A stretch of DNA of 64,000 nt. Origin: Methylobacterium sp. GTDB taxonomy: Bacteria > Pseudomonadota > Alphaproteobacteria > Rhizobiales > Beijerinckiaceae. A program made the position numbers and the translations under genes. Positions 14,854 to 30,525 of the stretch are shown here, piece after piece (the stretch's first letter is position 1; each line of letters begins with the position of its first letter). The notes under the pieces were generated by a model that had not been told where the DNA came from, made no database searches, and saw nothing but the letters and a program-made list of their open reading frames with translations. Location: the NCBI GenBank assembly GCA_044227265.1, contig JBGAFL010000004.1, positions 28,368 to 92,367 of the forward strand, read 5' to 3'.

Positions 14854-15255
14854 ATCTGCGGCTCGTGAGTTCCAATGATCGCCAAGGTGTCCGTACCCTG
14901 CGTTGATCGACACGCTTCCTCACCGTGTTGCCACCGTCAAGGGCGGGATCGGACGATCATCTTCACGCAGCACGGACCGCGGCCAATTGCGTTCGAATAT
15001 GGAACCGCCTTCGGAGGTCGCTGCGGACGATGGCCGATTTGGTCGTCGAACGAAGGCACTCGCCAGCTTCGGACCAGATCCGATTTTCGATCTGAAGCAA
15101 GAACGCACCTTAAGCTGAAAACTCGACGGTTGTCGTCAAAAGATAAGCTCGCCTACAGGCTTCCGAGCCGGCAGGACAACCTTAGAGAAACACCTTAGCC
15201 TTCCATTGGCCGCCTCACCTGCAACCGGAGATAGGTGCAATCTCGTGAGGGGATC

Positions 15256-15573
15256 ATGCTTGGCCAAACGCTTGCGCGTACGCTCGTCACAACGAGCGAT
15301 CGCCGAAATGTTCTGTTGGCCTTCGGGCTTGTCGTGTTGATGGCCGCCATCCGCTTCGGCGTCTGCGACATGGGCGCGGCTGCCGGCGCAAGTTGGGATG
15401 TATTCAGTCTACAGGAAGCTCTTGCCGCGCTGCTGAGCTTGGGTTCGATAGCAGCGAGCCTATTTTATTTCTTTGTAGGAAACGAGCTGCGCCTTGGCAT
15501 GATCATCGCGATGCCAGAAATTTTCCTACTTTTATGGCTTGGCAATCTTCAAATACAATTTTTGACATTCTAA
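15256..15573 (+). CDS. Small membrane hypothetical protein
   Basis: 105 aa with three hydrophobic segments and a GAGGGG RBS-like sequence upstream. Confidence 0.5.
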   Translation: MLGQTLARTLVTTSDRRNVLLAFGLVVLMAAIRFGVCDMGAAAGASWDVFSLQEALAALLSLGSIAASLFYFFVGNELRLGMIIAMPEIFLLLWLGNLQIQFLTF

Positions 15574-16511
15574 TTTTTCTGAAAATCAAGAATTATTCTA
15601 TAACTGATCGGCATCGATCGACGTATTGATCGGATTTGATTGGTTGGCATATTTCAAGCGTATATTGGCTAAGCTACCTAATTGTTCACGGGATTTGGCA
15701 TGGCGACGCTTGAGGTGGTCGGCGGCCGTTGGGTCATGGCCTGCCAAACCCCGTGAGTAATTACGTTGCGGGCGGCTGCTGCGCCCGGCGGTCGTGCAGA
15801 GGAAAGTGACCACCGGCGACCGCGCGATGTGGGCCGCACGACGCGGGCCGATATCCACACCGGCGTCGACACCGCACGCCTCAACGGCGGACCTGCGTTC
15901 GGAACCATTCTCAAGACCGTCGGCGCCTGAAACACCCATTGCAGAGGTGGGTAATTACCCGATAACAATACACCATCACACAGTGAGACTGAACTGCTAG
16001 ACAACCTCACGATCTAAACGAAAGAATTGCAGTCATGGCGAAACCGTAGTTAATTAAAATCCTTACTCAGTGTGTACATAAAGTTTTCAACCTTATTTCT
16101 GTAGAAGAATCGACTTACTCAATTGCGAAATTTTAATATTTGACCAAATAGACCGTGAAAGAAGCAAATTGAGAATTTGCAAGAAGGTTGGAACCAACTC
16201 CGAGTGATCTTTGATCCAGCGTTATACGATCAGGGAAGCGTAGAACAAGAATGGACAAATCTTTGCAGCAATGGAAGATTTTAGCTCTGCAGATTCGGCA
16301 GCTCGCACGCACCCAACCAGCCAGCCAGCCAACCGGTACAGGAATTAATTCCTATCATATTTCCTGGCACGCAACAAATGTTACCTTTGAGCAACATTCC
16401 GCCAGCAATGGCCTTAGGAGCCGAGCGGAGCGCGAATTCGCGGATTGTAATTTTGCGCCAGGTGGAGGGATAGTACAAGCTTAGCCATAACGAGAAGAAA
16501 GGGCCAAACCG

Positions 16512-17765
16512 ATGACCAGCAAACTGAGGCTGCGTGCTGCCGTTGCCGCTTGCGCCATTCTCGCCTCAGGCTATGCCTCTGCAGCAGATGCACCACCGAT
16601 TGCCGCACCAGCCCCGGTTGCCGACAATTGCAACGCTTCGATTTCCTTCCCGTCCTATGGCGGTGTGATCAAAGCCAATCCGGACCCATATTGCGTCGGG
16701 TCACCGGTCGGCGACATCTATGTGGGCGGCGCCCTCAGCGGTTACGCCTATCACTACAGCAAGCCACTGCCGTCCATTTACACGCCCGCCGTCCCGGGTA
16801 TTGATAACGATCGCAGCGGGCGCGTCGACGTTTTGAACGCGTTGGCAGTGATCCAGAAGGCCGATGGACCGTTCCAGTTCGTTGCGATAGCCGGACTCTA
16901 TGCGGTGCCCGTGCTCGGCCTGCCGACCTTCTCGTCCGTTGACCAGACTGACCTGCTCTACGGGCCGGTTCCGGTTGCTTTCGGCAAATGGCAGATCAGT
17001 GACGAATGGTCTGTCCAGGGCGGCCGCATGATGACGCTGATCGGCTCCGAGTCGATGTTCAGCTTCCAAAGACTGAACATTACTGGCGGCCTGCTGTACA
17101 ATCAGGAAAACCTGATCAACCAGGGTGTCCAGGTGAACTATGCGAGTGGACCTTGGGCGGTCTCATTCGCCGCGACCGACGGCGCCTTCTCGGGCGAGAT
17201 CAACTGGGTCACCGGCTCGATCAGCTACAAGCTCGACGATACAAGCGCGATCGGCGTCAATGGCGGCACGCATTTCAGCAGTTTCAATTCGGCATTGCGG
17301 AGCCCGCATTTTCAGTATGCGACGCCGCTCACGGTTCAGAACAGCAGTATCATCAGCGCGAACTATACTTACGCCAACGGCCCTTGGATCATCACGCCGT
17401 GGATCCAATATACGAATGTTGAAAGGAACGCGGCGTTCGGCCTGGCCGGTGCAGAAACCTTTGGCGCTGCCCTGCTTGCCAGCTACAGCTTCAACGACAA
17501 CTTCCATCTTGCCGGCCGTGGCGAATATATCGAGCAAAGCGGCAGTAAGACGAACCCGCTCGGCCAGACTTCGGTGCTGTATGGCGCGGGCAGTTCGGCC
17601 TATTCGCTGACAATCACGCCGACCTTTACCTGGGATCGGTATTTCCTGCGCGGCGAGTTCTCGCACGTACAGTTGACGAACTTTCAACCGGGGCTCGGAT
17701 TCGGCCGCTTCGGCACGGCGGGCCAGCAACAGCGCTACATGCTGGAGACAGGCATAACCTTCTGA
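16512..17765 (+). CDS. Outer-membrane beta-barrel protein / putative porin (OmpL-like BBP2 type)
   Basis: Signal peptide, alternating amphipathic strands and C-terminal Phe (RYMLETGITF). Confidence 0.8.
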   Translation: MTSKLRLRAAVAACAILASGYASAADAPPIAAPAPVADNCNASISFPSYGGVIKANPDPYCVGSPVGDIYVGGALSGYAYHYSKPLPSIYTPAVPGIDNDRSGRVDVLNALAVIQKADGPFQFVAIAGLYAVPVLGLPTFSSVDQTDLLYGPVPVAFGKWQISDEWSVQGGRMMTLIGSESMFSFQRLNITGGLLYNQENLINQGVQVNYASGPWAVSFAATDGAFSGEINWVTGSISYKLDDTSAIGVNGGTHFSSFNSALRSPHFQYATPLTVQNSSIISANYTYANGPWIITPWIQYTNVERNAAFGLAGAETFGAALLASYSFNDNFHLAGRGEYIEQSGSKTNPLGQTSVLYGAGSSAYSLTITPTFTWDRYFLRGEFSHVQLTNFQPGLGFGRFGTAGQQQRYMLETGITF

Positions 17766-18045
17766 TTCATACGAAATCCGATTGATTGCTTCGCAAGCGG
17801 ATTTCACTTTGCTCAATCGCCGCACGGGCTTGGTGATACGGTTTCCGACTGATTCAGTCGGAAACCGTATCAGTAGAAAGATCGAACCTTCCGAGCCACG
17901 CAGATCGATCTTTCAGAAGGAATGGGCGCGTCCGACATTCGTCCCTTTCGGCGCCGAAATGCGCCTAAAGCCCGGAACCAAACCAACTCAGCCGGATAAG
18001 GAATTGCTCGCTCACCGACCTCACGCCGACCTCTGCGCAAGGTCT

Positions 18046-28917: not shown

Positions 28918-29532
28918 CTATCTTTGATAGACAATGATTGAAAGATAAGTCATCGGTGTCTTGATGAGATTGGCAGGTCCGTGAAGCGCGGACGAATCAA
29001 ACATCAGCGAGTCGCCTGGCGCAAGATGATAATAATTTCCTGCATGCGCATAGATCAGTTCGCCCGTCAGCATATAGATGAACTCGACACCGGTGTGTCG
29101 AAAACTCGTGTATGGCTCGGCTCCGACTTCAAGTTTGATCAGATACGGCTCGACGACGATTTCGCCGCGGATGCCCGCGCCGAGCAACTGGTAAATGTGT
29201 CCCGCTTTGGTGCCACGGCGTTCGATCACCACGCCCTGGTCTTTCTTCACATGAGAGCAGTCACGTCGCTCTTCGAATGTTGCGAATAGAGACGAAATTG
29301 GAACATGCAACGCGTTCGCAATTGCATTCAGGGTCGCGAGCGAGGGCGAAATGGCACCATTTTCGATCTTCGATATCATTCCAGACGAAATGCCGGCAGC
29401 AAGACCAAGATCTGATATCGACAGATCGTGCTCGCGCCTTAAATTTCTGACTTGATGACCAATGGCTTGCTCAAGAGAACGCTGCTCCACAACCGGAGCA
29501 TTGGATGCAGTATTCAGCATGTGACTTTGCAA
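28918..29532 (-). CDS. XRE-family HTH + cupin transcriptional regulator
   Basis: IGHQVRNLRR..ISSGMISKIENGAISPSL, IERRGTKAGH, FRHTGVEFIYML and GDSLMFD...HGP. Confidence 0.92.
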   Translation of the reverse strand: MQSHMLNTASNAPVVEQRSLEQAIGHQVRNLRREHDLSISDLGLAAGISSGMISKIENGAISPSLATLNAIANALHVPISSLFATFEERRDCSHVKKDQGVVIERRGTKAGHIYQLLGAGIRGEIVVEPYLIKLEVGAEPYTSFRHTGVEFIYMLTGELIYAHAGNYYHLAPGDSLMFDSSALHGPANLIKTPMTYLSIIVYQR

Positions 29533-29924
29533 AGTTTGGCGTGAGATTTCAGCGCCATTGCGCTGTTCGGCAAACTGCTCGATTCAGGATTTGGGGGAGA
29601 CGCGTCGATGATGAGCGCGTCAGGCTCCCATTGCAAGGCCACTCGGCGTCTGCTCGATGCGGCAGCATGCCTCGGTTTCAGGGTAATTTTCAATCTGGCC
29701 AAATATCTCTGGTAAAAATTTCGGCGGCTCAAGTGTGAAACCGCGACCGCTTCAGCAGCCCTGTCTGCCCCGTTCGGCGCTGGGGACGTGAGGCTTTCCT
29801 GAAAGAATCGTCACCCGTGATGGGCAGAGCTCAACTAAATCGTGAAATTTAGTTTGCTCGAATCGTGATGTACCTTTGGATGCCCATTCCACACTTGCAA
29901 TCTCGGGGGTTCAAAGGTTCTGCT

Positions 29925-30290
29925 TGGCTCTGACAATCCGGTATACGCTCGCGGGCTGATCTTGAGGCGGCGAGCGACATCAGGGTGTCGGATGCCATCG
30001 GCCAGCGTCGCCTTCACCTCCCCTGGATCAATGGACGGCAGACGCCCTTTATGGTTGCCGGCGACTTGGGCCCTGGCGATGCCTTTCCATCTGGCGTTCG
30101 CGACGCAGATTGGTTTCGAATTCGGCGAAGACACCGAGCATGTCGAGGAAGGTTTTGCCTGCGGCAGCGCGAGTGTCGATCGGCTGTTCGGTCGCCTTGA
30201 GCGCGGAGCCCGTGGCTTTGAGCGTTCGAACGATGTCCCGCATGGTCGCCGATCGAGCGGGCGAGACGATCGATGCGAGCAGGAGCCCAT
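29925..30290 (-). pseudogene. Serine recombinase (resolvase/invertase) remnant, N-terminally truncated and frameshifted
   Basis: RIDRLARSIG, DIVRTLK, EQPIDTRAAAGKTFLDMLGVFAEFETNLRRERQME and, in another frame, GIARAQ..KGR..HTH. Confidence 0.85.
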
Positions 30291-30449
30291 GAGCGGCATG
30301 GTCGAGTTCGAGGGCGGCATCGGCCTCGCGCCGCGGCGTGCGCGTCGAGGGTGGATTGTTGCCACAGCCCTAGGTGCAGGCTCAGCCAACCTGTGGTTGC
30401 TAGAGTGTTCGCCCTGAGGGAGCGATCCAGCGCAACTTGTTAGAAAGAT

Positions 30450-30525
30450 TGGTGAGCGCGCTGGGACTCGAACCCAGGACCTACAGATTAAAAGTCCGTT
30501 GCTCTACCAACTGAGCTACGCGCTC
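30450..30525 (-). tRNA. tRNA-Lys (anticodon UUU)
   Basis: Reverse complement GAGCGCGTAGCTCAGTTGGTAGAGCAACGGACTTTTAATCTGTAGGTCCTGGGTTCGAGTCCCAGCGCGCTCACCA; 76 nt with encoded CCA. Confidence 0.97.

Follow-up and report, generated by a model that had tools for sequence, protein, structure and literature searches.

Methylamine dehydrogenase (MADH) and the N-methylglutamate (NMG) pathway are treated as alternative routes of methylamine use, the first serving fast growth on methylamine carbon and the second the scavenging of nitrogen, and as separately regulated. Here we describe a locus in which a complete set of MADH genes (mau) stands among genes of the NMG type. It lies in a stretch of 64,000 nucleotides, referred to throughout as the window, from a Methylobacterium-like bioreactor/activated-sludge organism (contig JBGAFL010000004.1, positions 28,368 to 92,367); all coordinates below are those of the window. 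One described mau locus, that of Methylorubrum extorquens AM1, is a region of approximately 10 kb flanked by copies of ISMex15, which was acquired horizontally and is patchily distributed in the genus, and horizontal transfer of mau within Methylobacterium has been published (PMC5023228). An XRE-type regulator gene is also known to be conserved in methylamine clusters, as seen across 103 methylotroph genomes (PMC13199381).

Running leftwards from a gene for tRNA-Lys(UUU), the block in the window consists of a recombinase relic, an XRE-cupin regulator gene, a small open reading frame (ORF), mauFBEDACJGLMN, the gamma-glutamylmethylamide synthetase gene gmaS, a convergent porin gene and a fragment of an IS66-family transposase gene. 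Genes were called from an ORF listing together with Pfam and NCBIfam, and tRNAs with ARAGORN. Each element named in an earlier interpretation made from the letters alone (the sequence-only reading) was found where it had been placed, and the IS66 fragment at the left edge is an addition to that list. The joining of MADH genes with parts of an NMG locus, which that reading had also proposed, is borne out, with the XRE, gmaS and porin genes all homologous to the flanks of mgsABC in Methylobacterium gnaphalii. We consider that the block is probably a composite, horizontally assembled methylamine-utilisation locus, situated at a variable site beside tRNA-Lys.

The central part of the block is a complete mau operon of 11 genes (19791-28235, minus strand), identified through Pfam, NCBIfam and the gene order of other mau loci. 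The large subunit of MADH is encoded by mauB (26081-27313; PF06433, Me-amine-dh_H, 573 bits), the small subunit, or tryptophan tryptophylquinone (TTQ) light chain, by mauA (24261-24830; PF02975, Me-amine-dh_L, 176 bits) and the di-haem TTQ maturation enzyme by mauG (21713-22795; TIGR03791, TTQ_mauG, 532 bits against a cut-off of 444). The MauA translation bears a twin-arginine leader (SRRGF) and the MauG translation two CxxCH motifs. Between mauB and mauA lie mauE, which matches the MauE family of Pfam, and then mauD. The amicyanin gene mauC, between mauA and mauJ, was recognised by a cupredoxin match, and NCBIfam assigns mauM, between mauL and mauN, to the MauM/NapG family and mauN (19791-20663) to the NapH/MauN family. 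The remaining genes, mauF (27378-28235), mauJ between mauC and mauG, and mauL between mauG and mauM, were assigned by their identity of 55-76% to counterparts in other mau loci and by their position; all of these genes are on the minus strand. Identical genes in an identical order are found in four further loci (L087, L088, L090 and L093). By analogy with known MADH systems, the enzyme would oxidise periplasmic methylamine to formaldehyde and ammonium, with the electrons passing to amicyanin. The closest MauB proteins are from uncultured contigs (79-84%), followed by Ancylobacter (77%) and Methylorubrum (76%), and the nearest mau relatives do not track the phylogeny of the host. Exact fragments of mauM, mauG, mauC, mauA, mauB and mauF were present in sludge metatranscriptomes. 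In the spacer between mauC and mauA the strain variant at 24210 is approximately 8-fold deeper than the sequence around it, which hints that the segment is shared with a second mau-bearing organism of greater abundance.

The regulator gene upstream of mau (28918-29532, minus strand) encodes a PuuR-like protein with HTH_3 and Cupin_2 domains, the true start of which is probably the ATG at 29520. The protein shares 72% identity with the XREs of the M. gnaphalii and M. nigriterrae NMG loci and 72-77% with the NMG-locus XREs of Methylobacterium as a whole, among which it is nested in a neighbour-joining tree. Within the genus, however, these proteins are 83% identical, so that at 72% the window protein is an outlier. 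Closer relatives are encoded on uncultured contigs (L087, 78%; L158, 83%; L160, 84%; L161, 91%), and in a neighbour-joining tree these four and the window protein form one clade, again nested in the NMG-type XREs of Methylobacterium. Members of the clade sit in tandem upstream of mau (L087 and L160) or of a stand-alone gmaS (L158). That the same clade is found before either mau or gmaS suggests that the protein may sense methylamine itself; according to a 2026 study the direct methylamine sensor has not yet been identified.

Alignment of the window with L087 and L160 revealed a conserved non-coding block (28305-28381, minus strand), approximately 70-145 nt upstream of mauF and near-invariant in the three loci, and which may serve as promoter or operator. 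A core of 33 nt within it reads CTTGAAACGAAAAATNTGTTCCTNTAGGGAAAC. The window holds no second copy of this core, nor do L158, the NMG loci or those mau loci that lack the XRE gene, and no 11-mer was common to three or more of the upstream regions compared (those of mauF, gmaS, the porin gene, the L158 gmaS, the XRE genes and the mgsA of NMG loci). The proposal that one regulator governs the block is therefore unsupported, as neither gmaS nor the porin gene is preceded by a copy of the mauF box. Between the XRE gene and mau, and on the strand opposite to mau, is the small ORF (28603-28881, plus strand; 92 amino acids), which has no Pfam match. A counterpart 41% identical in amino-acid sequence is present at the matching position in L161 (2499-2768; tblastn E=1e-16), with no match at the nucleotide level by blastn, and it is absent from L087 and L160. 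From this similarity it may be a real small gene.

Downstream of mauN and co-oriented with mau is gmaS (18046-19344, minus strand), the product of which belongs to the type III glutamine synthetases (GS-III) and matches TIGR03105 with 629 bits against a cut-off of 470. Against the crystallised GmaS of Rhodovulum (7cql) it scores 563 bits. From a list of 20 residues involved in catalysis and in the binding of ATP, Mg, glutamate and methylamine (PMC7948447), 19 are kept, the sole change being Tyr191 to Phe. The residues for catalysis, Arg312, Asp177 and Glu186, are retained, as are all those of the methylamine pocket, namely Tyr147, Gln175, Asp177, Glu179, Glu186, Asn188 and Lys30'. The two substitutions that mark GmaS are also present, as in the crystallised enzyme: Ala48', where glutamine synthetase (GS) has its ammonium-binding Asp50', and Trp300, where GS has the glutamate of the Glu flap. 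Judged by these residues the gene encodes a true GmaS and not a glutamine synthetase, and the role in ammonium capture considered by the sequence-only reading is unlikely given the GmaS-specific Ala and Trp. The best named relatives, at 67-70% identity, are proteins of Methylobacterium and Methylorubrum; most carry the annotation type III glutamate-ammonia ligase, and several are named gamma-glutamylmethylamide synthetase or glutamate-methylamine ligase. With 69-70% identity to the GmaS of Methylobacterium, as against 85-91% within the genus, the window protein is an outlier here too. In one strain variant (P0001) gmaS has 3 amino-acid changes for approximately 12 nucleotide changes, which indicates purifying selection.

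A spacer of 446 bp (19345-19790) separates the mauN and gmaS ORFs. Homology to L087 in blastn ends at 19830, and that to the other XRE-mau contigs likewise stops by this spacer, which shows single-nucleotide polymorphisms and a 1-nt indel between strains. A terminator consensus scan gave no terminator-like site within it, so that transcription may read through from mauN into gmaS. Beyond gmaS and convergent with it is the gene for a BBP2/OmpL-like outer-membrane beta-barrel porin (16512-17765, plus strand), which matches PF07642 over its full length (model positions 2-339 of 339, 192 bits) and shares 58-60% identity with the BBP2 porin whose gene immediately follows gmaS in the NMG locus of M. 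gnaphalii. Between the two convergent genes a repeat search found a perfect 19-nt inverted repeat (17834-17872), unique in the window, which is probably a bidirectional terminator. An 84-bp segment of the same gap (17767-17850), overlapping the palindrome, has a depth of 1007 in bioreactor contigs as compared with 146-150 around it. This depth, approximately 7 times that of its surroundings, indicates that the segment is repeated elsewhere in the genome or the community.

In the NMG locus of M. gnaphalii (L086) the genes run mgdABCD, XRE (plus strand), XRE (minus strand), mgsABC, gmaS, BBP2 porin and, further on, an amino-acid permease. The XRE, gmaS and porin genes of the window are respectively 72%, 70% and 58-60% identical to those which flank mgsABC there, and their order, XRE, mau, gmaS and porin, places mau in the slot of mgsABC. 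In M. nigriterrae the XRE gene is divergent from mgsABC-gmaS, and the NMG locus of Methylorubrum has an AraC/DJ-1 (TmaR-type) regulator instead and is without the porin. Searches with the M. gnaphalii proteins (tblastn) found neither gene nor relic of mgsABC in the 64-kb window, nor any of mgdABCD, in agreement with the sequence-only reading. An mgsC-like match at 16338-16565 (E=0.086) and an XRE-like match at 15295-15462 (E=0.048) were set aside as noise. The idea that mau had replaced mgs within an older NMG locus stands in part: the gene order and the flanking homologues are as it would predict, while the XRE and porin genes have the opposite orientation. An ethanolamine-permease-like amino-acid permease adjoins NMG loci and also some mau loci (L110 and the plasmid pLVM1; L155, 7145-12738). 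It occurs with a set of small ORFs in L086 (13378-16677), L092 (16673-19297) and L110, and two of these ORFs are present without a permease match in L107; the permease and small ORFs may represent a shared methylamine uptake module.

By scanning JGI metagenomes with a MauB profile we obtained 62 mau loci. GmaS, the BBP2 porin and an XRE of the window type were found in none of these, nor in L088, L090 or pLVM1, and the search for co-occurrence of mau, gmaS, porin and XRE showed gmaS and the porin to be absent from approximately 70 other mau loci. Only XRE with mau recurs, in L087 and L160, so the view of the whole block as a recurring module did not hold; the recurrent unit is XRE plus mau, and the mauN-gmaS-porin junction has so far been seen in the host lineage alone. 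In L087 (SRR30654423) the XRE gene (78%) stands in tandem before mauF to mauN, which are followed by a GcvT-like gene, and MauB is 80% identical. In L160 (ERR4878530) an integrase-like DUF6538 gene precedes XRE (84%) and mauFBED and the genes beyond, with MauB at 81-84%. In L158/L159 the XRE gene (83%) lies directly before a stand-alone gene of the GmaS family (TIGR03105, 579 bits; the pair at 5422-7591 in L158) and there are no mgs genes in the contig; the L158 GmaS has Tyr at the position of Trp300. In L161 the XRE gene (91%) is beside an IS5-type gene. The orientation of an XRE-gmaS pair of the L158 type suits it as a frame for the insertion of mau, and it is a better template than the M. 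gnaphalii locus. The GS-like genes that L096 and L097 carry 7-8 kb upstream of mau are only 30% identical and were dismissed as ordinary GS. In L088 (888-5457; MauB 79%) mau is preceded by four tandem regulator genes of the LuxR/GerE type and no XRE, so that close mau relatives are preceded by differing regulator genes.

The tRNA-Lys(UUU) gene (30450-30525, minus strand; ARAGORN, and 75 bits in Rfam) has its 3' end facing the block and forms a synteny breakpoint. To its right the order of a gene for a 395-amino-acid protein, tgt, queA, a CDF transporter gene, lipB and tRNA-Leu(GAG) (36988-37072, by ARAGORN) is shared across Methylobacterium and Methylorubrum, and in all 24 loci of these genera that were scanned tRNA-Lys abuts the 395-amino-acid gene. 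The DNA 3' of tRNA-Lys varies from species to species in Methylobacterium. In the comparison with relatives that the sequence-only reading had called for, the block was absent from this tRNA-Lys site in 24 species of Methylobacterium and Methylorubrum, and its genes were found in none of 80 related loci. Synteny gave no left boundary, as nothing in positions 1-30449 of the window matches the DNA 3' of tRNA-Lys in relatives.

Decayed relics of mobile elements, in keeping with the mobile module envisaged from the letters, are present at both ends. On the right is a pseudogene of a resolvase-type serine recombinase (approximately 29935-30335, minus strand), which requires two frames to be joined and matches positions 81-144 of the 145 of Pfam Resolvase (E=6e-11). 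It is frameshifted, its catalytic N-terminus is missing, and its closest relatives are recombinases on Methylobacterium plasmids (59-62% amino-acid identity). On the left a region of 1.6 kb (14914-16511), non-coding and with a GC content of 0.514, houses the 3'-terminal fragment of the IS66-family transposase gene (15767-15960, plus strand, by blastn). The fragment corresponds to the final 155 nt or so of the coding sequence and is 72-80% identical in blastn to IS66 transposase genes, also on Methylobacterium plasmids. Strains differ by an 11-bp insertion at 30391, by a 1-bp indel within the resolvase relic (29953) and by several indels in the left spacer. No tyrosine integrase lies beside tRNA-Lys, where the truncated small serine recombinase is the only such gene. 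The 3' end of the tRNA has no copy with three or fewer mismatches in the window, and no att-like direct or inverted repeat was found at the boundaries. With neither integrase nor tRNA 3'-end repeat, the 'tRNA-anchored island' fails in the classical sense of the term, and the block is best described as an old, decayed acquisition, mediated by an insertion sequence (IS) or a plasmid, at a variable site beside a tRNA.

The AT-richer flanks noted from the letters are real, with a GC content of 0.52-0.57 at 15-19 kb and 28-30 kb as compared with 0.61-0.65 across mau, and of 0.65-0.69 beyond the block. GC content at third codon positions (GC3) is stratified across the block and gives a mixed picture of its origin: XRE (0.54), gmaS (0.70), the porin gene (0.73) and the spacers, which are likewise GC-poor, deviate from the host core genes (0.78-0.81), whereas the mau genes (0.76-0.87, with mauL at 0.63) equal them. 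The XRE and porin regions are GC-poor within the native NMG locus of M. gnaphalii as well. The core proteins of the host are 60-82% identical to those of Methylobacterium, the same as between Methylobacterium clades. Two ORFs with low GC3 and no family match were rejected as genes (15235-15573, which also has frame-breaking indels between strains at 15461-15572, and 19403-19732). An Rfam scan found tRNA and no other RNA family, and promoter and terminator consensus scans performed no better than on shuffled sequence.

The window is no assembly chimera. Independently assembled Logan contigs span 13000-17796, 17845-30479 and 30490-32351, with breaks only at the tRNA and at the 84-bp segment, which occurs repeatedly in the metagenome, and their depths are level across the block (146, 150 and 141 in one run and 311, 338 and 315 in a second). 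Strains from two other sludge studies, approximately 1-2% divergent, have the identical left junction (contig 13792-15534) and right junction (27960-30478). The even depth, together with the junctions shared by other strains, indicates that the block is chromosomal, single-copy and fixed in the population.

It would seem likely, then, that the core of the locus is a complete MADH operon that travels with a dedicated XRE-cupin regulator, of a clade that would have derived from the XRE regulators of NMG clusters. In formal terms mau occupies the slot of mgsABC, between XRE on one side and gmaS with the BBP2 porin on the other. The likeliest origin would be the insertion of mau into an XRE-gmaS pair or the joining of an XRE-mau unit to a gmaS-porin fragment, with plasmid or IS-borne DNA as the probable mediator, which would have left behind the IS66 fragment and the resolvase pseudogene. 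The PuuR-like regulator would respond to methylamine, the sole ligand common to both pathways, and would act at the candidate box upstream of mauF. Methylamine would presumably enter the periplasm through the porin, and methylamine reaching the cytoplasm could be turned by GmaS into gamma-glutamylmethylamide, which may serve either nitrogen assimilation, by way of NMG enzymes whose genes would lie in another part of the genome, or detoxification.

Several observations weigh against this composite, horizontally assembled locus. Its left boundary is set only by base composition and the IS66 fragment, and neither an integrase nor an att repeat is there to point to a mode of insertion. The XRE and porin genes being inverted with respect to the NMG locus of M. 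gnaphalii, a simple in-situ swap of mgsABC does not fit, and the window GmaS is closer to the NMG-type GmaS (70%) than to that of L158 (64%). The mauF box was not seen upstream of gmaS, the porin gene or the L158 gmaS, and the sludge metatranscriptomes held no gmaS or porin fragments, at a depth too low for a firm conclusion. In Aminobacter, furthermore, deletion of both xre copies gave no growth phenotype on methylamines (PMC13199381), which leaves the role of the regulator unproven. By analogy with PuuR, the absence of a knockout phenotype would be expected of a repressor of this kind.

Some of this evidence could also be read to mean that only XRE and mau form a functional unit and that gmaS and the porin gene are a fragment left over from an unrelated or decayed NMG locus, uncoupled from MADH. 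XRE and mau occur without gmaS and porin in L087 and L160, and the 62 metagenomic mau loci are without both; homology with L087 stops at mauN, the 446-bp spacer follows, the mauF box is single-copy, and the metatranscriptomes are silent on gmaS and porin. Set against this, gmaS is intact with its catalytic residues all kept and is under purifying selection, in L158 a stand-alone gmaS comes straight after an XRE of the same clade, the interval from mauN to gmaS has no terminator-like site, and every part acts on the one substrate. We regard a leftover of this sort as possible, if rather unlikely. It is doubtful, and more so, that the tandem XRE-cupin clade is a direct methylamine sensor that can be plugged in before either MADH or GmaS, with a stand-alone gmaS working together with MADH without NMG synthase or dehydrogenase; in such a hybrid route gamma-glutamylmethylamide could be, for example, a nitrogen store, a detoxification product or the true inducer of the regulator.

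The block might instead be native, inherited vertically in the host lineage, with its low GC content reflecting the regulatory and porin genes. This would be consistent with a mau GC3 equal to that of the host core genes, with XRE and porin regions that are of low GC in the native M. gnaphalii locus too, and with the even depth and the fixation of the block in strains from three studies. Vertical inheritance is nevertheless largely refuted, and we hold it to be very unlikely, since none of 80 related loci has the block at the conserved tRNA-Lys site, gmaS is at 69-70% where 85-91% is seen within the genus and the core genes lie inside the genus range, the nearest mau relatives (uncultured contigs and Ancylobacter) are incongruent with the host phylogeny, and the IS66 and resolvase relics are present. 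The GS-III gene, for its part, could be thought to encode a true glutamine synthetase (GlnT) that catches the ammonium released by MADH. The NCBIfam family name, 'type III glutamate--ammonia ligase', would allow it, and the release of NH4+ by MADH is established biochemistry. The substitutions described above, Ala at the ammonium-binding position of Asp50' and Trp in place of the Glu-flap glutamate, are however exactly those of the crystallised GmaS, the pocket for methylamine is retained in full, and among the top named relatives from Methylobacterium and Methylorubrum several are annotated as glutamate-methylamine ligase, which together make a GlnT extremely improbable.

Elsewhere in the window, just past tRNA-Leu(GAG), a region with a GC content of 0.59-0.63 (37975-43664) contains four genes and a cytochrome b561 gene. 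The four encode an ErdR-like response regulator, a PQQ-dependent dehydrogenase of the methanol/ethanol family (TIGR03075, 711 bits), a pentapeptide-repeat protein and a PedF cytochrome c550, and from these family matches the region would appear to be a second module for alcohol or C1 oxidation beside a tRNA. The left flank (2290-8726) encodes a STAND-type protein of 1202 amino acids with DUF676, AAA and TPR domains, followed by a KaiC-like ATPase and HWE histidine kinase pair.

The arrangement places a regulator of an NMG-typical family directly before mau operons, in the window and in three or four related uncultured contigs, and shows a gmaS that stays under selection though parted from its NMG partners. 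It makes methylamine sensing open to test, through an XRE protein, a 33-nt box that is conserved and two operons as alternative targets, and it bears on whether parts of the MADH and NMG pathways cooperate. It also documents how, in wastewater communities, DNA borne on plasmids and IS elements reshuffles methylamine modules.

Comparison with the described systems shows which of these features are shared. The mau operon of M. extorquens AM1 agrees with that of the window in its 11 genes and in their order, with MauB 76% identical, though there the IS flanks are intact and no adjacent XRE-cupin, gmaS or porin gene is described (PMC5023228), whereas in the window the flanks are NMG-type genes together with the decayed remains of an IS66 and a resolvase gene, next to a tRNA. 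The conjugative plasmid pLVM1 of Methylobacterium sp. DM1 (CP029174.1) carries mau and a partial NMG module (XRE, mgsABC and gmaS, no mgd) on one replicon; its two modules are 61 kb apart and each is IS-flanked, with mgsABC present, while in the window gmaS is 446 bp from mauN and chromosomal. The IS-flanked mau of this plasmid (L155, L156 and L162) has aminomethyltransferase and permease genes upstream, and its second IS-flanked module reads XRE-mgsABC-gmaS-Gfa-globin, without mgdABCD. The NMG locus of M. gnaphalii has homologous XRE, gmaS and porin genes in a like relative order around a central operon; the window differs in having mau in the central slot and neither mgsABC nor mgdABCD, in the flipped XRE and porin genes, and in a gmaS and XRE that fall outside the tight Methylobacterium clades. 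L087 and L160 have an XRE of the same clade in tandem upstream, the common mauF box and mau proteins 65-95% identical, and they differ in the GcvT-like gene in the place of gmaS in L087 and the upstream DUF6538 gene in L160; L158 in turn has gmaS and no mau. The regulator resembles E. coli PuuR in its XRE-cupin architecture (NCBIfam PuuR, E=2.5e-15, below the cut-off), and in E. coli an XRE-cupin repressor is likewise paired with a GS-like gamma-glutamyl-amine ligase, the gamma-glutamylputrescine synthetase PuuA. This similarity is at the level of family only, the substrate being putrescine there and, by prediction, methylamine here. The horizontal transfer of mau and the XRE genes of methylamine clusters are already published, and the locus rearranges known parts in an unusual way without amounting to a new kind of system. 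What is new is the tight fusion of XRE, mau, gmaS and porin, an XRE clade dedicated to either mau or a stand-alone gmaS, and a selected gmaS without NMG partners nearby.

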